Source: an uncultured Lachnospiraceae bacterium
GTDB taxonomy: Bacteria; Bacillota; Clostridia; Lachnospirales; Lachnospiraceae
Reading direction: 5' to 3'
NCBI GenBank assembly: GCA_947053345.1
Contig: CAMRSM010000009.1
Coordinates: 27,732 to 67,731 of the forward strand
Length of the DNA: 40,000 nt
Shown: positions 4,940 to 25,605 of the stretch, in pieces
How the letters are laid out: each line of letters begins with the position of its first letter
Position numbering within the stretch: position 1 is the first letter of the stretch
Notes under the pieces: generated by a model
What the model saw: the letters and a program-made list of their open reading frames with translations, nothing else
What the model was told of the DNA's origin: nothing
Databases searched by the model: none
Position numbers and translations under genes: made by a program

Positions 4940-6838
4940 TCACAGCAGCATTGCCTTCAGCCTCCCCTTCCATTCCTCCGGGAGGCCTTCCGCCATCTTC
5001 AGGTATTTCATCGCATACTGCCGGTTCTGGTAAAAGACCTCCCTCAGGACGTATTCCCCGGGGTTTTCCCTCTTAAAGTCATGGTCGTGCCGGTCAAGGA
5101 ATGCATAGAAGCTGTCCCGGTCAAACCCCCAGGTATCCTCCATGATAAGCAGAATCCCCATGAAATACTTCGCATTCGCCTTTTTGAAGTTCCTGCTGTT
5201 TTCCTCAAAGGATTTCAGCTGGTGGCACGCCCAATAGACCAGCTTTAAATGGTGTCCTGCCTTCACGCCCCTGTCGAGGTCAAGGTCATATGCCGCCAGG
5301 AATGCCCTGGCATACTCGCGGTAGAACTCCTCCTCATAGCACCTGCCGTTGTACGTCCGGTTGAACGCGCTCCCCTCCCTCCATATCCAGCGGTAGTAGA
5401 CCGGGGATTTTTCACAGGCACCCCCCTCACCGTAAAGCACCCGCGCCATGATGTTCGCCCTGCGGTTGAAATAGACATCCTCCGACGTGTCCAGCCCGTC
5501 AAGGAACCATATCCCATTTTCCTTCAGGAACCCCCTCCGGTACAGCGTCCCGTGGACGACCTCGATGCAGTGGTACGGGGCCTGCGGGTTATCCTTTGCC
5601 ATGTCCACGTTGATGGACTCGCCGGTTACCACACACAGGCCACTGCCATGCCCCCGGAATGCTTCGTCAACCAGTTCCGCGGTGATCTCATCGTCGTGGT
5701 CAAGGAACGTCACCCACTCCCCCTTTGCCATCCGCAGCGCACGGTTCCGGTTGCCGCCCATCCGAAGGATCCCCGCATTGTACAGGATCCGCATGCCGTC
5801 CCTGCGGGCATACTCGTAATCCGGCCGCGTGGACGCATCGTCCGTCAGGATGACCTCGACCTGCCCCGCCCTGCTGCCGACCGCATCGTACAGCGCATGG
5901 ATGGTTGCCGCGGTATATGCATGCGACTCCCGCAGCGGGATCAGGACAGAAAGCTTTATGGTATCAAACGCCCTGCGCCACTTCCCGTACAGGGCTTCCT
6001 CCCGCGGTCTTGGTTCTGCCCCCAAAAAGTTACAGTATCCCCCGTAATCCTCAATGCCTGTGAGGCGTTTCACGCAGTCAAAGAAGAGGTACCAGGTCTT
6101 ACCATCCCCCTCCTTTTCCGGGAGGTATTCCCTGTCATGTTTCAGCCTGGCAAGGCATTCTTCCGGGAAGACCTCGTAATATTGCCCCACCAGCTCCGTT
6201 ATCATTTCAATCCGCTCATGGTGTGTCGTCCCGAAAAAGTCCGCCACCTTCCTTGTCACGGAATCCGGGTTATACATGAGGTCGAACGATATTTCCGGGA
6301 TGTACCGGATCCCGCCCTGCCTTTTGGCATGATAAAACGCCACCATGTTGAAAAAGGAGTCCTCATAGATCCGGATCCCCGGGTGGAACCATATCCTGTT
6401 CCGCAGGAGGAACGCCCTCCGGTAGATTTTCCCGTGCACCATCCAGTCAAGGCTTTCCGGCAGGACCTCCTCCCCGGTGAAGGAAGCATCCGCCTGCCTC
6501 CCGGCACATGATATGATGTCCTCCGTGATTTCCGCGTCATGGTACAGCGGGTCGAAGATGTTTTTCCTTACAATGTCATCCGCGTCCAAAAAAAGTACCC
6601 ATTTCCCGGTGGCCTTCCCCAGGCCGCGGGTTCTGGCGACCCCCGCGCCACGGTTCGTCCTCCCCCTCACGATGGTAACCCCCCATCCCGCCGGGAAGGC
6701 ATATGGCCTGTCCGAGGCATCGTCCGAAACGATGACCTCCACGTTGTCATACCCCGTGGCAAGGACGGACTGTACCGCCGCGGATACCGTGCCGTGCGCA
6801 TTGTACGCCGGTATGATGACCGATACTTTTACATTCAT
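4940..6838 (-). CDS. Tandem two-domain family-2 (GT-A) glycosyltransferase
   Basis: Two GT2 N-termini (VSVIIPAYN...VSDDAS...DADD and LSVLIPLRE...LTDDAS...DHDD). 632 aa. Confidence 0.88.
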   Translation of the reverse strand: MNVKVSVIIPAYNAHGTVSAAVQSVLATGYDNVEVIVSDDASDRPYAFPAGWGVTIVRGRTNRGAGVARTRGLGKATGKWVLFLDADDIVRKNIFDPLYHDAEITEDIISCAGRQADASFTGEEVLPESLDWMVHGKIYRRAFLLRNRIWFHPGIRIYEDSFFNMVAFYHAKRQGGIRYIPEISFDLMYNPDSVTRKVADFFGTTHHERIEMITELVGQYYEVFPEECLARLKHDREYLPEKEGDGKTWYLFFDCVKRLTGIEDYGGYCNFLGAEPRPREEALYGKWRRAFDTIKLSVLIPLRESHAYTAATIHALYDAVGSRAGQVEVILTDDASTRPDYEYARRDGMRILYNAGILRMGGNRNRALRMAKGEWVTFLDHDDEITAELVDEAFRGHGSGLCVVTGESINVDMAKDNPQAPYHCIEVVHGTLYRRGFLKENGIWFLDGLDTSEDVYFNRRANIMARVLYGEGGACEKSPVYYRWIWREGSAFNRTYNGRCYEEEFYREYARAFLAAYDLDLDRGVKAGHHLKLVYWACHQLKSFEENSRNFKKANAKYFMGILLIMEDTWGFDRDSFYAFLDRHDHDFKRENPGEYVLREVFYQNRQYAMKYLKMAEGLPEEWKGRLKAMLL

Positions 6839-6850
6839 ATACTGCCCCCT

Positions 6851-7036
6851 TTAATACAGCTCGCCCTCCGTGTCGTCCGCCAGCAGGATCGCATCGACCT
6901 CCGCATCCCCCGTGAGGCCTGCGACTGCATGGTATTCCTCCTGTGTGATCTGCCCGGAAAGCACGAAGTTATATACATCCCCAAGGGAGTACAGGCCTTT
7001 GTCATAATACTTCACGACCAGTTCAAACATCCGCAT
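6851..7036 (-). CDS. XkdX-family small phage protein
   Basis: M(R)MFELVVKYYDKGLYSLGDVYNFVLSGQITQEEY matches the XkdX pattern. GGGAGGGAAGGGGG lies upstream. Only the last 61 codons of the track ORF 6851..7360 look coding. Confidence 0.7.
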   Translation of the reverse strand: MRMFELVVKYYDKGLYSLGDVYNFVLSGQITQEEYHAVAGLTGDAEVDAILLADDTEGELY

Positions 7037-7370
7037 CCCCCTTCCCTCCCTGTGTACCCAACAGCATTGCCATGATCCTTGCCTGTCCCAGGAGGATCTG
7101 CGCAAAAACCCCGTCGTTGTCCGGCAGGGCAGCCGGCATGCTTCCCCCCGTGCCAGCTGCCGTCCCCGCGTCCCCCTCCCCACCCACATAAAGGTCTTCC
7201 CTCGCCCCAATGATGGGCTCGTGGGGTTCCTTTGAGACATCGACCCCCGTGACATAAAACTTATTGGGGTCAATGTCAGCCTCCAAATAAGGGATTCCCG
7301 ATGGGGGATCATACGTCCCCGCAACCTGGTAGAGCACCCGACCGGATGTGTCATAAACAACCAATACCAT
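7023..7370 (-). CDS. Hypothetical tail-fibre-associated protein (XkdW position)
   Basis: ORF directly downstream of the tail fibre gene. Coherent composition. Confidence 0.5.
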   Translation of the reverse strand: MVLVVYDTSGRVLYQVAGTYDPPSGIPYLEADIDPNKFYVTGVDVSKEPHEPIIGAREDLYVGGEGDAGTAAGTGGSMPAALPDNDGVFAQILLGQARIMAMLLGTQGGKGDADV

Positions 7371-7384
7371 AATCTTCCCCTCCT

Positions 7385-8503
7385 TTAAAATGCGATGATC
7401 CTCGTGGTGTATTCACACATATTAGACGGATAATCATATGGTCCCATGCTATAATATGTATATTTTCCCACCCCGACGGATTTTGGCAGATAAGACAGTT
7501 CATTACGAGTTCTATAAAAATTTGTACCAATAAAAGAAGAATTTAAATCAACATTATTATTTAGTGGGAATGAGTTATTAAAAGTGGAAATGTTATTTGC
7601 ATTCCCAAGCAGAAAGAAAAAATTACCATTTTTTATTATTATAATATTTTCGTAATAAGTTATGCATTTTATATCCGAAGCCCCAGGGATTCCCTTCCTC
7701 ACGATGCTATCAACCACCTGTATGACAAGGACGTTGTAATCTGTTATCCCATAATCGGATAGGTTCACTTTTACCGGGGTCATGGAAGTTGTTGTGCCTG
7801 ATACCGTCACGTCCTTGCCACCGCCGCCAGTCCCCGTGCTGATTTTCCCGATATTGGCCGCGATCGCCGCGAATGTCGCGTCGGCTGCCGTCGTGACCCC
7901 CTTTGCAGTGACGGCGGCGGCAACCGATCTCTTGCCGTCACTGACAGATTTTTTTAGCCCTTCGACCTCACTGGAGGCTGCAAAATGCGCCGCATGGTAG
8001 CCGTCCAGGGTGTCCGCGTTCCCGCCGTCCCGTTGTGCCGCGATGGTCACCTTCTTCGCCGCATTGTCCGCCGCCAGCGTGATGTTTGCCCCCGCCTCCA
8101 GCACAAGCGCTGCCATCTTGCCGTTCGCCGTGACGGTGGCATCCCCGACCCTCACGTTGCTGTAGGCGTTCTGGTTTGCCTCCGCACCCGCTGCCACCCC
8201 GTCCAGTTTCTTCTTGTCCGCCGCAGCCATCAGCCCTGCCGCACCCTGCGTTGCCACGGCTGTCCCCGCCTTGGCATCCCAGCCCTGCTTTTCCTGCGTG
8301 CTCACATGGATATCCCCGTTGTCCCTGTGCCCCTCCAGTACCCGTGCGGTTCCCCGAGCCAGCGCCGCAAGGAATGCGTCATTGTTGACCAGCTGCCCGA
8401 ACAGCGCGTTGAACACATCCGCATGGTTTGGATCCGTCGTCTCCAACTTCCGCAGTGCCTGGTTATATTCCGGCGGGTCCTTTACCACAAAGTCTGCCAT
8501 CAC
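7385..8503 (-). CDS. Tail fibre protein with AT-rich C-terminal (receptor-binding?) module
   Basis: Fibre-like Ala/Gly/Thr-rich shaft with NADTLDGYHAAHFA motif. The last ~100 codons (7385-7700) are strongly AT-rich and Asn/Ile/Phe-rich. Confidence 0.8.
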   Translation of the reverse strand: MMADFVVKDPPEYNQALRKLETTDPNHADVFNALFGQLVNNDAFLAALARGTARVLEGHRDNGDIHVSTQEKQGWDAKAGTAVATQGAAGLMAAADKKKLDGVAAGAEANQNAYSNVRVGDATVTANGKMAALVLEAGANITLAADNAAKKVTIAAQRDGGNADTLDGYHAAHFAASSEVEGLKKSVSDGKRSVAAAVTAKGVTTAADATFAAIAANIGKISTGTGGGGKDVTVSGTTTSMTPVKVNLSDYGITDYNVLVIQVVDSIVRKGIPGASDIKCITYYENIIIIKNGNFFFLLGNANNISTFNNSFPLNNNVDLNSSFIGTNFYRTRNELSYLPKSVGVGKYTYYSMGPYDYPSNMCEYTTRIIAF

Positions 8504-21584: not shown

Positions 21585-22178
21585 TTATTCTGCGTCCGGG
21601 TTGTTTTCGATATAAGCTGCCAGTTCCTCGTAAGACATCTTCGACATGTCAACATTCGCCCCTGGCTTGTTGTCCCCGGAGGCTCCCGGCTGGAAACCCC
21701 GGAAATTGTTCTGCTGCTTTGCATTGAACAGATAAGCGTCCGTTTTCTGGATCGCCTTGATCTGCTCATCCCATCCAGCCAGCTTCCCGTCCTCGCCCAG
21801 CTTCACCTTTGAAATATCAATCAGGGCTTTCACCGCCTTGCCGTTCTTTGCCCCTGCAGCGGTCAGGGCAGCATCAATCGCATTGTCAAGGCGGAGTTGC
21901 GCCAGTTCTGCCTTGTACGCCTTCTCCTGGTCGGCATTCTGCTGCTTCATGGCTTCGATCTGTTTTTTCAGTTCTTCGTTGTCGCCCGCTGAACCTTTCA
22001 GGGTTTCAAGCTGCTTGTCACGGTCAGAAACCGATGTTTTCAGCGTCTTGTTCTCCTCGACCACCTCATTGTGTTTTGACTTCTCCACATAACCTCCCAG
22101 CTCTTTCAGGGAAGCTGCTTCTGCTTTGGCTGCCAGTTCTTCACTGATGCCAAGGGCAATAAACTCCTCCTTCTTCAT
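21585..22178 (-). CDS. Scaffolding protein
   Basis: Highly charged, helical, Ala/Lys/Glu-rich 197 aa upstream of the capsid gene. Confidence 0.82.
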   Translation of the reverse strand: MKKEEFIALGISEELAAKAEAASLKELGGYVEKSKHNEVVEENKTLKTSVSDRDKQLETLKGSAGDNEELKKQIEAMKQQNADQEKAYKAELAQLRLDNAIDAALTAAGAKNGKAVKALIDISKVKLGEDGKLAGWDEQIKAIQKTDAYLFNAKQQNNFRGFQPGASGDNKPGANVDMSKMSYEELAAYIENNPDAE

Positions 22179-22213
22179 TTCTTGCCTTCCTTTCTGAATT
22201 TTTTGTATAAAAA

Positions 22214-22238
22214 GAACGCCCTCACGGAGAGGACGTTC
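22214..22238 (-). terminator. Intrinsic terminator just upstream of the scaffold gene
   Basis: Minus strand GAACGTCCT-(7-nt loop)-AGGGCGTTC followed by TTTTTAT. Confidence 0.6.
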
Positions 22239-22382
22239 TGATTATTTTTTGATATGCCGAATTTGGAATCAAAATTTCCCAATTCACAAATCCTGCACTG
22301 TTACAAACTCCCATTCTCTAAAAATTCTTTTGTTCAAATGCCCCATTGTCTAAAGCCGGCTGAATCACAGTGTTTATTTCCC

Positions 22383-22411
22383 TTGCATTTTACCTAAAAG
22401 TATGGTATAAA
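22383..22411 (+). promoter_or_regulatory. Strong sigmaA-type promoter pointing against the late operon
   Basis: TTGCAT (22383-22388), 17-nt spacer containing TGn, TATAAA (22406-22411). Confidence 0.5.
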
Positions 22412-22418
22412 ATAATTA

Positions 22419-22496
22419 GGAAAAGACCATTTCCCGTCCCCATTGTCCCAATTCCATGAATCGGTTGACCGGACAGATAAATGGTCTTTTTTATTT
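22419..22496 (+). ncRNA. Candidate ~75-nt structured small RNA convergent on the MuF-toxin stop codon
   Basis: Predicted start about 7 nt after the -10. A 12-bp closing stem AAAAGACCATTT (22421-22432) / AAATGGTCTTTT (22479-22490) is followed by TTATTT. No ORF with an RBS lies inside. Confidence 0.35.
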
Positions 22497-24089
22497 CCTG
22501 CTATATGCTTTTAAAAGGTTTTTATTCTTTATTACAATGATTTTTTCTACAAATTTTGTATGTTCTGAAGCATAAAGTCCTTTTATCTGCCTTTCAATAT
22601 CTTCTTCGGACAACGGACAGTCTGTAATATCAAAAATAAAGTTGGGAGATTGTTTCTTTTTCTTTGCAAGCATACCATAAAATAAATTTTTTCCTCTCCC
22701 CGTCGGAGATTTCAGATCAAACCTTTCCCCATCAATCAAATAATCGGGTGTCTGTATTCCTTGCGGAAACAACACTTGGGGCACAAACTCCACCGTTTTT
22801 CCATATTCTCCGCTTAGTATAGCGGCGACTTCCTTTTCTTGTTTTGTTGGTTGGAGTATGACATGTTTCCCGTCCACTTTATATGTTGTACCGTTTATTG
22901 CATATTCCTGCCTTTCAATAACAGTACCTTTTATTCCCTTTGTCCCTGTCCATTCCTTAGTAATATCCATGGGACTAATTTTATCAGAATCTTCTTTTCC
23001 TGTCCAGTGCACATTTTCGTCTCGATTTACTTCATCAAACTTTGTTTTTTCCCCACCATCTACAAAACTTTTCTTCCATTCCCCATAGCTCATATCGTCC
23101 GGAACATGGTACGTCTTCCCATCCTCGTCCCTTGCCGCCCGCTTTCCTGCCTGCCCAAAGTCATCCTCAAAATACGGAACGGTCGTGCTCCGGCAGAAGA
23201 CATGGAACGGCGGCGCGGTCACACCGGCCTGGTAATCCTTCATCGGGAATACCTGCCCATCAAGGCTGCGGCAAATTTCGGAGGTGTGGGAATCCAGCGT
23301 CGCCACGATCTCATACTGGTCAACCCCCAATTCGCAAAAACAGTCCTTCTGCGCCGCCGAGCTGAAATAAGCTTCCTCCGTCATGACAAGCCGTCCAGCA
23401 TTGTAACTGGAATTTTTCATCTTGCGCGCAATGGCATCAATGGCTTTCTGCGGATCTTGCCCCAGCATGATATTATGCGTCAGTTCGTTATGTACCTCCC
23501 CGATCAGCTTCTGGCGATTGCCCCAGACCCTTTCGGAAAAATTCTTCCCGTCCACAGCCCACGGTTTGCTGATAACCTTTTCAACCGCAGACTGGTCAAT
23601 CCCTGCAATATCCCAGCCTACCCCAAAGCCCTTCTGCAGCTCATAAGCCGTATGGTAGTAGCTATCCAGATAAACACGTTTCATAGCCGCATCCACATTG
23701 TCCAGCTGGTTTTTAAACATTACCTCGAGGCTCTGCTGTACTTGTAGCTTTAAAGCCTCAAGACGTGAGATGTGGAAGCGTGCCGAGGCGTTTTCCAGTT
23801 CCTTCATCCATTTCCCATCCAACTTATTTTCTTTCCCGTGACGGATATATTCCCCGACATCCCAGCGGAACTCCGTTAATTCATTTCCGGAAAGCATCCG
23901 CCGGGCTTGTGCCATCGACACCCCATTGTTGGCAGCAAACCGCTGGTACCACATACTGATCTTGCCTTCCAGTTCCCTCTCCGCCTGCCGGTATTGCCGC
24001 TCGACTTCTGCACACACAGCCGCCCCTTCCCGGTTCTGTGCCTCCTCAAGCTGTGAAAAGCGCAACTTCCAGTAGTCACTGTTTTTCAT
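22491..24089 (-). CDS. MuF / SPP1 gp7-family head morphogenesis protein with toxin-like C-terminal domain
   Basis: MuF core TLDSHTSEICRSLDGQVF...PPFHVFCRST. An extra ~180-aa AT-rich-encoded C-terminus carries TPDYLIDGERFDLKS. Confidence 0.88.
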   Translation of the reverse strand: MKNSDYWKLRFSQLEEAQNREGAAVCAEVERQYRQAERELEGKISMWYQRFAANNGVSMAQARRMLSGNELTEFRWDVGEYIRHGKENKLDGKWMKELENASARFHISRLEALKLQVQQSLEVMFKNQLDNVDAAMKRVYLDSYYHTAYELQKGFGVGWDIAGIDQSAVEKVISKPWAVDGKNFSERVWGNRQKLIGEVHNELTHNIMLGQDPQKAIDAIARKMKNSSYNAGRLVMTEEAYFSSAAQKDCFCELGVDQYEIVATLDSHTSEICRSLDGQVFPMKDYQAGVTAPPFHVFCRSTTVPYFEDDFGQAGKRAARDEDGKTYHVPDDMSYGEWKKSFVDGGEKTKFDEVNRDENVHWTGKEDSDKISPMDITKEWTGTKGIKGTVIERQEYAINGTTYKVDGKHVILQPTKQEKEVAAILSGEYGKTVEFVPQVLFPQGIQTPDYLIDGERFDLKSPTGRGKNLFYGMLAKKKKQSPNFIFDITDCPLSEEDIERQIKGLYASEHTKFVEKIIVIKNKNLLKAYSRK

Positions 24090-25605
24090 TCACACCACCA
24101 TCCCCATCCTGTGCAGGATTCCCCTGCTGCCTGAAAGGGTTATATACCTGCTGCCGCTCAAACTCCGCTTGTTCTTCCTCTTTCTGCTTTTTCAGCCTTT
24201 CCATTTCCTTCTTTGGATCGTCAACCCATGGGTGCTGCCCTACAATGGTTTCATCCGAAAGAATCCCTGTCGAAGCCACGCAGTCTGCGATTACTTGGCT
24301 CTCATCCATCAGCATGTCACGGTTGAAGATGACCGTGGCTTCCTGACCGGAAAAATCCCCCTGCCCGGTATTTGCAAGATAGGCATTCACAAACCAGAAG
24401 ATTTCCCGAAATGCTGCCTGCAGCTCCGTCTCCATATCGTTCGCATCAAGGTCAATGTCCGAATACATGGACTGGATATTCATCTGGTTCGGGTTGCCGG
24501 AAAGCCGGTCGTCCTTCGCATCGTAGCCCATGCCATTTTCAATCAGGGCTTTCTTGAAGATATCAAGTATAATCCGGTAATTCTCCGGGTTCACCTGAAC
24601 CTCCAACGTTTCCACCCCTCCCTTTGTCTCACCGTCATAACGCACCTTCACCGCGCCATAGGTCGCAAGGTTGCGCCGGAATTCCCCCAAGTTCGTACCA
24701 TCATAATTTTTCAGCACAAGGATTGTGTTCCTAGAATCCTCCTGCATGTTATTCTCAAAATCCGACAGCATGGCGTTGATCCCGTCCTGGAGCGTTTTCA
24801 CCCTGTTGAGCAGTGGGAGCTCCTGCTCATTGTATTTTATGGGGATCAGTGGTATCCTCTGCCAGTTCAATCCCATCACCGCGCCATCCGCGCCGGAAAC
24901 CACTGCATGGGGCACCGAGACTGCCTCCCCCTCCAAGCCCACATCCGGGAAGAGCAAGCCGCCATCAAGGACAAAACGGTGGACACCCCTCAGGTCATAT
25001 ACCTCCACTTTCTCAACAAGCCGCAAAACCGTCCCCTCATAGCACTCCGCCAGATACAGGCGCACCGCAAAATCAAGAACCGTGTGTTCCCTGTCCTTCC
25101 AGAACGGCAATACCTCATAACCCGGAAACAGGCGGAAGGAAAATCCCCCCTCCCCGTCATGGAATGGATACAGCCATGCAATCCCGTTGTTCATTGCCAT
25201 CTTGCCCGCATTCTTCAGTGTCTTCATGAACCGTTTGTCAAAGACCTGCCTCAGATACCCGGCATACCCTTCATGATCCGTTTCCACAACAAAGGGCTGC
25301 CCCAGAAGGTAATTTGCTTTCTGGTTGACCAGCTTTCCATACTGGTTGTCAATGACGCGGTTGTTCGGAAGATTCCCAACCTCCGTCAGCTTCCCATCCT
25401 CCCCGATTACCGTCCTTTTGCGGTGCAGGATGTCATGTTCCCCTTCATAGTACAGGCTTCCCTTAACCTGCATGGCGCGCTGTGGGCTGTTCTTCCATCT
25501 GGCTATCTCCCTCTCAAGAAATTCCCGGTCGGACATCCGGCTTCTTGCACCCTGCAGAATCAGACCGGAAACCCCATTCTTTAGAAAATCAATAAAATCC
25601 AACAT
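24076..25605 (-). CDS. Portal protein (SPP1 gp6-like)
   Basis: 509 aa between terL and MuF. Confidence 0.88.
   Translation of the reverse strand: MLDFIDFLKNGVSGLILQGARSRMSDREFLEREIARWKNSPQRAMQVKGSLYYEGEHDILHRKRTVIGEDGKLTEVGNLPNNRVIDNQYGKLVNQKANYLLGQPFVVETDHEGYAGYLRQVFDKRFMKTLKNAGKMAMNNGIAWLYPFHDGEGGFSFRLFPGYEVLPFWKDREHTVLDFAVRLYLAECYEGTVLRLVEKVEVYDLRGVHRFVLDGGLLFPDVGLEGEAVSVPHAVVSGADGAVMGLNWQRIPLIPIKYNEQELPLLNRVKTLQDGINAMLSDFENNMQEDSRNTILVLKNYDGTNLGEFRRNLATYGAVKVRYDGETKGGVETLEVQVNPENYRIILDIFKKALIENGMGYDAKDDRLSGNPNQMNIQSMYSDIDLDANDMETELQAAFREIFWFVNAYLANTGQGDFSGQEATVIFNRDMLMDESQVIADCVASTGILSDETIVGQHPWVDDPKKEMERLKKQKEEEQAEFERQQVYNPFRQQGNPAQDGDGGVNEKQ

Follow-up and report, generated by a model that had tools for sequence, protein, structure and literature searches.

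An AT-rich nuclease cassette on a prophage MuF head protein gene carries a conserved hairpin and promoter block, a candidate RNA antidote

We analysed a stretch of 40,000 nt from an uncultured Lachnospiraceae bacterium (GenBank assembly GCA_947053345.1, contig CAMRSM010000009.1, positions 27,732 to 67,731), hereafter the window, and in it the gene of a 532-aa phage head protein that belongs to a prophage late operon (22491-24089, minus strand). An initial annotation, made from the letters alone, had described this protein as a MuF head protein with a toxin-like C-terminal (CT) module and had found no immunity gene behind it. We show here that the AT-rich DNA from about 23006 to 22383 is a complete two-gene cassette, consisting of a nuclease gene and of a covarying hairpin with its promoter block, and forms an in-frame graft at the 3' end of the MuF gene (Table 1). 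Three properties of this cassette had been overlooked: the spacer behind the stop codon opens with a strongly conserved structured RNA gene, the module has an internal promoter and start codon of its own, and the same cassette is also found free-standing in bacterial chromosomes.

Table 1. Features of the cassette and its surroundings, in window positions
Feature	Position	Strand	Basis and details
MuF / SPP1-gp7 head-morphogenesis part (carrier)	23061-24089	-	Pfam, TIGR01641, PHROG 115; GC 0.52
Internal sigma-70-type promoter in linker codons	22978-23006	-	-35 TGGACA (23006-23001), 17 nt, TGaTAAAAT (hexamer 22983-22978)
Free-CT frame, 159 aa and stop, in frame with MuF	22491-22970	-	PF18451, AlphaFold2/Foldseek, invariant motif; GC 0.36
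Nested hairpin, about 70 nt, directly after the stop	22421-22490	.	Covariance model, covariation, fold z-scores
Predicted small RNA, about 79 nt	22418-22496	+	Coordinates inferred from promoter position and U-run
Promoter-like block facing the hairpin	22383-22411	+	-35 TTGCAT (22383-22388), 17-nt spacer, TGgTATAAA (-10 22406-22411)
Remaining AT-rich spacer	22240-22382	.	No conserved sequence, open reading frame or RNA family
Ordinary intrinsic terminator, 11-bp stem and T-run	22213-22239	-	Terminator scan; just upstream of the scaffold ribosome-binding site

The head protein and its nuclease tail

The N-terminal part of the protein is that of a MuF head protein. Pfam Phage_Mu_F (PF04233) was found at residues 198-303 (E 4e-14, 53.8 bits for a cut-off of 29.6), and the open reading frame (ORF) also matched TIGR01641 phageSPP1_gp7 (E 1.8e-23) and PHROG 115, 'minor head protein' (E 3e-131), so the MuF/SPP1-gp7 signature noticed at first sight is real. 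It is the N-terminal MuF-superfamily domain that characterizes the MuF polymorphic toxins of Jamet et al. (2017). The late operon runs in the order terminase, SPP1 portal, MuF-CT, scaffold (21585-22178, Phage_scaffold PF06810), capsid and tail sheath, and the MuF-CT gene thus occupies the head and packaging module, as do the genes of the MuF polymorphic toxins.

The base composition changes abruptly within the gene. The tail had been called AT-rich, and the GC content of its last 480 nt is indeed 0.36 as against 0.52 in the flanking genes. It amounts to 0.360 in the free-CT ORF, 0.376 in the linker (22968-23060) and 0.372 in the 312-bp spacer up to the scaffold gene (22179-22490; about 0.37-0.40 throughout), compared with 0.524 in the N-terminal MuF part, 0.520 in the scaffold gene, 0.518 in the portal gene, 0.52 in the capsid gene and 0.507 in the whole window. 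The AT-rich island extends from about 22213 to 23060 and includes the spacer; the toxin ORF, the RNA gene and the remaining spacer all lie near 0.37 between flanks of 0.52.

The tail had been likened to the PD-(D/E)xK tRNase-type CdiA-CT domains, and a Pfam search had been suggested. This search returned CdiA_C (PF18451) well above its curated cut-off of 26.6 bits, both with the whole protein (E 5.8e-22, 78 bits) and with the tail alone (E 9.1e-23, 80.7 bits). The tail also matched, weakly at the sequence level, chain A of 4G6V, the CdiA-CT tRNase of Burkholderia pseudomallei 1026b. We then modelled the domain with AlphaFold2 using an alignment of 54 homologues (pLDDT 92, pTM 0.85). The model shows the fold of the PF18451 nucleases (helix 57-70, strands 73-76, 91-93 and 96-101, helix 110-115, strand 124-128), and when it was compared with the PDB by Foldseek the sole match below 1e-3 was 4g6v_A (E 2.7e-6, probability 1.00, TM 0.48/0.60).

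The PD..DxK-like signature and the QSPNFIFDIT strand noted initially are both present: the window tail contains the catalytic motifs TPDYLIDGERFDLKS and QSPNFIFDIT. Across the 54 homologues the PDY, the D and K of FDLK and the downstream Q are invariant, and the Glu of helix 1 is near-invariant. Moreover, the PDY and FD motifs of the window protein align residue for residue with the 1026b motif. The catalytic set of the PD-(D/E)xK CdiA-CT toxins consists of Glu, Asp and Asp/Glu-x-Lys (PMC9086364), and the same residues are kept here. Since the Pfam family, the structural match to 4g6v_A and the invariant catalytic residues all agree, the proposed likeness was right, and the last ~160 aa are, as judged from sequence and model, a CdiA-CT nuclease domain of the Bp1026b (tRNase) type, whose PD-(D/E)xK catalytic motif is intact.

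As a protein, this fusion is of an already known kind. Jamet et al. (2017) list MuF toxins with the Bp1026b-like nuclease domain cd13442, including that of Streptococcus pyogenes SF370.1 (PMC5576092), which bears out the initial assignment to the MuF toxin family with this very domain type; through PF18451, the C-terminal domain is one that also occurs in other polymorphic-toxin families. With the MuF toxins the window protein shares the N-terminal MuF part, the variable C-terminal toxin, the location between portal and scaffold and the Firmicutes prophage setting. Two things set it apart from them: its conserved downstream partner is a structured RNA gene and not a small ORF, and its toxin module, which also occurs free-standing, has retained a promoter and a start codon of its own.

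The hairpin, its promoter and the predicted small RNA

A small ORF (<150 aa), regarded as the candidate immunity gene, follows the gene in 89.4% of the MuF toxins, which makes it usual but not obligatory (Jamet et al. 2017, PMC5576092); none follows it here. We confirmed that the 312-bp spacer contains no ORF of at least 60 aa, and found that its ORFs of 30-47 aa, on both strands, are not conserved in the relatives; on identical public contigs, the gene callers called no gene in this spacer. In related phages the ORFs downstream of the element vary by lineage (YjcQ, DUF6275, DUF4236, RHH-like or unrelated small ORFs), or the scaffold gene follows directly, so that no immunity ORF recurs at this position. 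All ORFs within 2.5 kb of 20 free-standing copies were also clustered and no shared protein family emerged, the only recurrent neighbour 'families' being spurious antisense ORFs of the toxin gene. The lack of an immunity gene remarked upon initially therefore holds across the family, with no conserved protein neighbour, and is not due to a local deletion. We also considered a remnant of a deleted immunity gene and rejected it: the 117-aa ORF that comes after the RNA element in the closest phage relatives (L009 and L047) belongs to the YjcQ family and has left no nucleotide trace in the window.

What is conserved behind the stop codon is a hairpin. We compared the DNA past the stop codon in 14 viral loci, 36 genome loci and the window, and the element was found 0-15 nt past the stop in all 14 viral loci and in about 30 intact genome loci, whether the toxin is fused or free-standing. 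Its layout consists of a stem P1 (12 bp in the window and 11-14 bp overall), P2, an internal loop, a 3-bp GUC/GAC helix, an AA bulge and P3. The two strands of P1 read AAGACCATTT/AAATGGTCTT in the window, GAAAATCGT/ACGATTTTC in locus L034 and GAGTTGTTTT/AAAACAACTC in locus L015, and the stem differences between lineages are compensatory changes. U-runs flank the hairpin on both strands, so it can serve as a bidirectional terminator.

The covariation tests were based on a structure-blind MAFFT alignment of 34 distinct sequences. RNAalifold predicted 15 pairs from it, 14 of which have double changes. For the 28-pair structure, 87.5% of the cells are paired, compared with 72.0 ± 0.7% after shuffling, and double changes occur in 25 of the 28 pairs; double-change cells number 187, as against 62 ± 7 in the shuffled alignments and 10-34 when the partner is slid by 1-3 columns. 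The fold z-scores of the window copy are -5.0 on the minus strand and -3.0 on the plus strand. A covariance model built from this alignment found a single copy in the window (22367-22496, 129.5 bits, E 5e-23) and copies at all toxin loci, including the one behind a fusion to a small-terminase-like protein (TerS). The same model gave no match in 700 kb of unrelated phage DNA, and the random matches of a loose DNA pattern scan served as its negative control. Searching from the DNA first, by pattern scan and covariance model, yielded 12 true elements, and a toxin ORF lies directly upstream in 9 of the 10 that could be evaluated. The element is also intact beside the pseudogenised toxin genes of L053, L055 and L056, and behind the MuF-toxin gene it is doubled in tandem in an Acetatifactor metagenome-assembled genome (MAG; L030, 4471-4731) and in a metagenome contig (L205, 5016-5276). 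In a Selenomonadaceae MAG (L040), another copy lies 1.6 kb upstream of the toxin gene.

In Rfam 15 the window matched no family at gathering score, and the region 22000-22700 gave at E up to 10 only chance-level matches, which were driven by P1 or by the second terminator (22213-22239). A known RNA family, a ribozyme and a tRNA-like element were rejected after these searches and ARAGORN had given no match. An integron attC-like site was considered as well; the element is devoid of R''/R' core sites, and an RNA gene accounts better for the promoter block and for the mapped transcript described below.

At a distance of about 10 nt from the hairpin the 34-sequence alignment contains two blocks, which are conserved and keep a fixed spacing with a variable spacer sequence. 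On the strand opposite to the toxin gene, the family block reads TTGCAT-N17-TGnTATAAa, a promoter of the sigma-70 type with an extended -10. A simple promoter scan omits the window site because its -10 ends in A. The predicted small RNA (sRNA) would start about 3 nt before P1, comprise the hairpin and end with a U-tail that covers the last two codons of the toxin gene and its stop codon. Two observations bear on the strand. Non-Watson-Crick pairs in 43 distinct sequences comprise 88 A.C pairs, which are G.U pairs on the opposite strand, as against 31 G.U pairs in the toxin sense, and this family-wide wobble asymmetry favours the strand opposite to the toxin gene as the RNA strand. Moreover, the opposite strand folds more stably in 25 of the 34 sequences.

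A counterpart has been mapped in Streptococcus. The same toxin domain (47-48% identity) ends the MuF protein in 41 Streptococcus prophages, where the nested hairpin straddles the stop codon and displays the invariant core and compensatory P1 changes, with an opposite-strand promoter, TTGATA-N17-TATAAT, beyond it. In S. pyogenes S119, differential RNA sequencing identified the transcription start site pyotss0677 (1445566, plus strand), which defines a 70-nt primary sRNA, SP119_SR103, antisense to the 3' untranslated region of the SPP1-gp7-family gene SP119_1434 (PMC6431027). The late operon around it was below 3 reads per kilobase per million in the lysogen (PMC6431027, Tables S2, S5 and S6). 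Rosinski-Chupin et al. (2019) assign to this RNA of an S. pyogenes M1 prophage neither a function nor a link to a toxin (PMC6431027). A catalogue of sRNAs from S. pyogenes SF370 likewise includes antisense RNAs of phages (PMC4829319). At the position homologous to the window element, where we had predicted the promoter, phages P9 and Javan497 contain the exact reverse complement of the published 51-nt string. The 70-nt RNA comprises nothing but the hairpin (-30.1 kcal/mol), and its 3' end lies 13 nt inside the ORF.

SP119_SR103 and the window element thus have in common the stop-codon slot of a MuF gene ending in PF18451, the nested hairpin, the opposite-strand promoter and the U-tail. The streptococcal loci differ in that the toxin module has no internal ATG or promoter and two small ORFs stand behind the element. 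The architecture is the same in both, and homology of the streptococcal and Lachnospiraceae RNAs is no more than suggested, by a marginal covariance-model score at the same position. By analogy, we infer that the window block is a small-RNA gene convergent to the toxin gene, which would be active in the lysogen.

In phage P9, gp29 (L001, 3508-3696, with equivalents in the Javan phages) is annotated as a 62-aa ORF starting from an ATG inside the sRNA hairpin. A ribosome-binding site (RBS), AAGGAGG, precedes an internal ATG of this ORF, from which a 38-aa single-pass membrane peptide would be made; for this reason the deposited start is probably wrong. On the other strand, this RBS is overlapped by the -35 of the sRNA promoter.

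The internal promoter and the carriers of the module

The module also has a predicted promoter for the toxin gene. The free-standing homologues of 157-161 aa begin at the same MDITxEW as the internal ATG of the window (22970). No Shine-Dalgarno sequence precedes the free-standing copies, whose ATG lies exactly 7 nt behind the end of a near-consensus TTGnAA-N17-TGnTATAAT. In the MuF-fused genes of the close clade, the same promoter is written within the linker codons and is followed by the Met, and in the window too the -10 ends exactly 7 nt before the ATG. Among 29 distinct CT genes of the close clade, both fused and free-standing, a -10 with A2 and T6 is present at this exact offset in 27 and the TG in 25. 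A -10 with at least 5 of 6 matches together with a -35 with at least 4 of 6 precedes 62% of these 29 genes, as against 0.3% of 9,816 background ATGs. This spacing would place the start of transcription on the start codon and predicts a leaderless mRNA. It is therefore probable, from these sequence features, that a leaderless transcript from the internal promoter expresses a free toxin of 159 aa. The distant fusions (L010, L015-L021, L051 and Streptococcus) have neither the Met nor the promoter and keep the RNA element.

The module is widespread and rides on several carriers. A profile search of 1.84 billion representative proteins gave about 1,075 clusters (50% identity) at E up to 1e-3. Among the 150 of these clusters that were listed, the domain is C-terminal in nearly all and the longest protein has 859 aa; ten sampled clusters include fusions to MuF, minor capsid protein 2, the portal and a small-terminase-like helix-turn-helix protein. 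The question raised initially, whether the tail also rides on other carriers, is thus answered by the fusions to minor capsid protein 2, portal and TerS and by the free-standing genes. Most of the closest relatives (55-80% identity) are free-standing genes of 157-190 aa in Lachnospiraceae and related Clostridia, and the family as a whole is known from Lachnospiraceae of the human gut as well as from S. pyogenes, S. agalactiae, S. equi and S. suis prophages. Across these carriers (MuF, minor capsid protein 2, portal, TerS and free-standing genes) and genomes, the hairpin and its promoter block accompany the nuclease.

Several of these loci deserve a description. In P0167, P0255, P0134 and P0112 the toxin domain is fused to portal (PF06381), to small-terminase-like proteins and to an intein-containing MuF. 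The TerS fusion L224 lies in an apparent remnant of a deleted prophage, with TerS-CT, scaffold, a short capsid fragment and an amidase. The 'stand-alone' genes of L023, L031, L039 and L048 (178-188 aa) have MuF linker codons upstream (e.g. DMTYEQWKKSLVDGDKTGLQEV), which identifies them as 5'-truncated remnants of MuF-toxin genes and not as primary free-standing cassettes. Unrelated DNA lies upstream of the free-standing copies L042, L044, L046, L038, L049, L041 and L045. One free-standing toxin gene (L005/L034, 6001-6017) shares 17 nt with the end of rarA/mgsA, a recombination-ATPase gene with housekeeping neighbours, and is devoid of the leaderless promoter; together, the overlap and the missing promoter suggest translational coupling to the housekeeping gene. 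Another is found near LexA, an integrase, a Wadjet system and a toxin-antitoxin pair. No obvious immunity gene was seen at these two inspected loci.

Possible roles of the small RNA

We then asked what the small RNA may do for a cassette of this kind. We propose, as a reading for and against which the evidence stands about evenly poised, that it is the antidote, i.e. the immunity factor or antitoxin, of the nuclease toxin. According to this scenario, the internal extended -10 promoter would give a leaderless mRNA for the free toxin independently of the phage late operon, and the convergent small RNA would take over the antidote function that other polymorphic toxins obtain from a protein. Two modes of action can be imagined. 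In the first, akin to type III systems, the RNA would bind the nuclease through the conserved core of its internal loop, and lysogens would then also be guarded against toxin delivered by sibling virions. In the second, akin to type I systems, the RNA would anneal to the 3' end of the toxin mRNA, to which it is fully complementary, and cause this mRNA to decay. The near-invariant core around the internal loop argues for recognition by a protein, and antisense control is favoured by the perfect match between the RNA and the complementary 3' end of this mRNA. In both cases the hairpin may double as the shared bidirectional terminator of the toxin mRNA and the sRNA, and the full-length MuF-toxin made from late transcripts is presumably packaged with the head, as proposed for MuF toxins.

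An RNA that stands in the immunity slot, is kept beside decayed toxins, is duplicated and is expressed while the late genes are silent matches the needs of a lysogen immunity factor. The bolder version, in which the RNA is a true immunity factor that blocks the PD-(D/E)xK domain via its internal-loop core and protects both lysogens and carriers of the free-standing cassette, is possible but rather doubtful. If true, it would be the first known case of immunity conferred by an RNA among polymorphic toxin systems, and it would define a new toxin-antitoxin architecture, with a leaderless nuclease gene and a convergent terminator-hairpin sRNA. Grafted onto any virion protein, such a cassette could make a delivered toxin of it.

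Several observations weigh against the antidote proposal. The argument for the putative immunity role is drawn from position, exclusive linkage and a lack of alternatives, and the toxicity of the domain, like any effect of the RNA on it, is a prediction. The -10 of the window sRNA promoter, TATAAA, lacks the final T, and its -35 matches the consensus only in TTG. A generic promoter score did not discriminate the tails from their shuffles (8.3 versus 7.9 of 12), so the promoter argument relies on positional conservation and on the streptococcal transcription start site. The window copy is also atypical in its fold: it has three toxin-sense G.U pairs, which become A.C mismatches in the predicted sRNA and thereby weaken the opposite-strand structure. 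The alignment-trimmed hairpin of the window has -29.9 kcal/mol in the sense orientation versus -19.9 kcal/mol on the opposite strand, and the 96-nt stretch 22405-22500 has -33.0 versus -23.5 kcal/mol. Averaged over the hairpin, conservation is no higher at unpaired than at paired positions, and the near-invariant core is small (the AA bulge, a GG and the flanking G-C pairs). The streptococcal element is recognised by the covariance model, at the same position, with only 22-26 bits (E 0.1-0.6). A plain bidirectional terminator would likewise consist of a hairpin with U-runs on both sides. Finally, the MuF that precedes the element in L181 has a different C-terminal module. This locus (5677-8404) encodes a 726-aa MuF whose other C-terminal extension contains HEFLH (metallopeptidase-like), followed by a highly charged ORF of 153 aa, and its element lies at 8275-8404 (127.8 bits). 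It looks as if the toxin module had been replaced there, with the breakpoint just upstream of the old stop codon.

The alternative that survives best is that the hairpin is merely a bidirectional terminator and that the opposite promoter insulates or regulates, by blocking read-through or by interfering with the late operon, without any antidote role. MuF-CT would then be made only in lytic cells that are doomed anyway, or would be inactive until processed or delivered. The U-runs on both sides of P1, the modest overall conservation of the loops, the silence of the late operon in the streptococcal lysogen and the retention of the L181 element behind another module are all compatible with it, as is the fact that 10.6% of the MuF toxins have no downstream small ORF (Jamet et al. 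2017, PMC5576092). We nevertheless consider it unlikely. In chromosomal free-standing copies a consensus extended -10 is placed directly on the ATG, which means that the nuclease is probably expressed outside lysis, and this calls for an antidote. It is also hard to see as mere insulation a promoter whose sole product is a terminator hairpin and which is kept from streptococcal phages to Lachnospiraceae. Furthermore, the element stays intact by decayed toxin genes and is found in tandem in L030 and L205, both of which are typical of antitoxins, and an invariant internal core with every stem covarying is unlike ordinary terminators.

Alternatively, the domain could be a specialised nuclease of the phage or the cell rather than a toxin of its own host, for example an injected RNase or DNase for anti-defence or host takeover, or a defence effector, and the RNA its cofactor, a guide-like element or a regulator. 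The fusions to several packaging and head proteins (MuF, minor capsid protein 2, portal and TerS) would fit such a role, as would the copy that overlaps the 3' end of rarA/mgsA in a core-genome setting without an immunity gene and the copy near Wadjet and a toxin-antitoxin pair; besides, the functions of PD-(D/E)xK enzymes are very varied (PMC9086364). Yet the only significant structural and sequence relatives of the domain are bona fide interbacterial tRNase toxins, the RNA is the hairpin alone with no variable, guide-like segment, and an AT-rich, patchy and frequently pseudogenised cassette (L053-L056 and L220) resembles a selfish or conflict module. We therefore hold this explanation to be quite improbable.

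Immunity provided by a protein after all, whether from a spacer micro-ORF (17 codons, from the conserved ATG in GACAATGGGG), an antisense ORF (22664-22822, plus strand, 52 aa) or a distant prophage gene, is very improbable: the ATG within the hairpin is conserved, some genomes have long ORFs starting from it, one of which is annotated in streptococcal records (P9 gp29), and antisense ORFs within the toxin gene cluster across 9 loci, but the hairpin ORF (MGTGNG...) shifts frame relative to the conserved blocks, varies from 17 to 108 codons, has no usable RBS and encodes unrelated peptides, the antisense frame is open over at least 45 codons in only 23 of 35 loci, the free-standing neighbourhoods have no protein family in common, and the downstream phage ORFs come from unrelated families. 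The version with an adjacent ORF is thus largely refuted.

The cassette combines traits of several known systems. The CdiA-CT/CdiI pairs of B. pseudomallei 1026b (4G6V) and E479 (5J4A) consist of tRNase toxins with protein immunity, and the domain studied here shares with them PF18451 and the catalytic set of acidic residues and lysine. It differs from CdiA-CT in several respects: the identity is ~20%, its D-x-K is canonical, and it has a further beta-rich region at the N-terminus; it is carried by a phage head protein and not by CdiA, and no CdiI-like protein is present.

In type I toxin-antitoxin systems, which are frequent in Firmicutes prophages, convergent antisense RNAs can overlap the 3' end of the toxin gene, as in txpA/RatA and bsrG/SR4 of Bacillus subtilis and in RNA I/RNA II of the Enterococcus faecalis par system, whose two RNAs share a bidirectional terminator. 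The convergence of toxin gene and small RNA, the 3' overlap and the common terminator hairpin would be found with the predicted transcripts of the window as well. The architecture and the conserved promoter fit an antisense overlap, and the transcript has been mapped for the streptococcal counterpart only. In contrast, the toxin of type I systems is a small hydrophobic peptide whereas the one encoded here is a soluble nuclease domain of 159 aa, the RNA consists of the terminator hairpin only, with no extra region to mask a start site, and its conserved internal core hints at recognition by a protein.

Type III systems (ToxIN, CptIN and TenpIN), in which a structured RNA neutralises an endonuclease toxin, have a phage-related ecology. 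The proposed pairing of a nuclease toxin with an RNA antidote would be common to both, and the tandem RNA of L030 and L205 recalls repeat antitoxins. However, the fold is PD-(D/E)xK here instead of that of ToxN/AbiQ, and a single downstream unit with its own convergent promoter replaces the upstream repeat array processed by the toxin; two tandem copies occur only in L030 and L205.

In the literature that we searched, the linked RNA gene, the internal leaderless promoter and the free-standing cassette are not described, with the exception of the uncharacterised catalogue entry SP119_SR103. The RNA partner of a MuF toxin is new, whereas the MuF toxin itself was known. Polymorphic toxins (contact-dependent inhibition, Rhs, LXG and MuF) are recognised and mined by the rule that a toxin domain is followed by a small immunity ORF. 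A widespread toxin family with a conserved RNA partner would break this rule and could explain some 'orphan' toxins, and it would extend the toxin-antitoxin repertoire by a nuclease toxin whose antidote is an RNA. Members of this family are abundant and of medical relevance, and they occur in gut Lachnospiraceae and streptococcal prophages. As an sRNA has already been seen experimentally at this site, without a function, the hypothesis can be tested at once. In addition, the internal leaderless promoter suggests that the virion-protein fusion and the autonomous toxin-antitoxin module are two states of one mobile cassette, which has implications for the acquisition of cargo toxins by phages and for competition or defence mediated by prophages.

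The rest of the region calls for few remarks. A second, ordinary terminator precedes the scaffold gene (Table 1), and its hairpin sequence is found again elsewhere in L025, L030 and L205. Two terminators between MuF and scaffold inside a late operon imply antitermination or a separate promoter for the scaffold gene. A blastn search with 22240-22380 against all fetched loci gave no match, and megablast of the region against the phage collection gave no near-identical one. The CT region of the window is 100% identical to the public contig ERZ808040 NODE-212 (57.7 kb), and the identical 532-aa MuF-CT protein is recorded on five public contigs. Upstream, the portal ORF (24076-25605) and the MuF ORF share an overlap of 14 nt (24076-24089).

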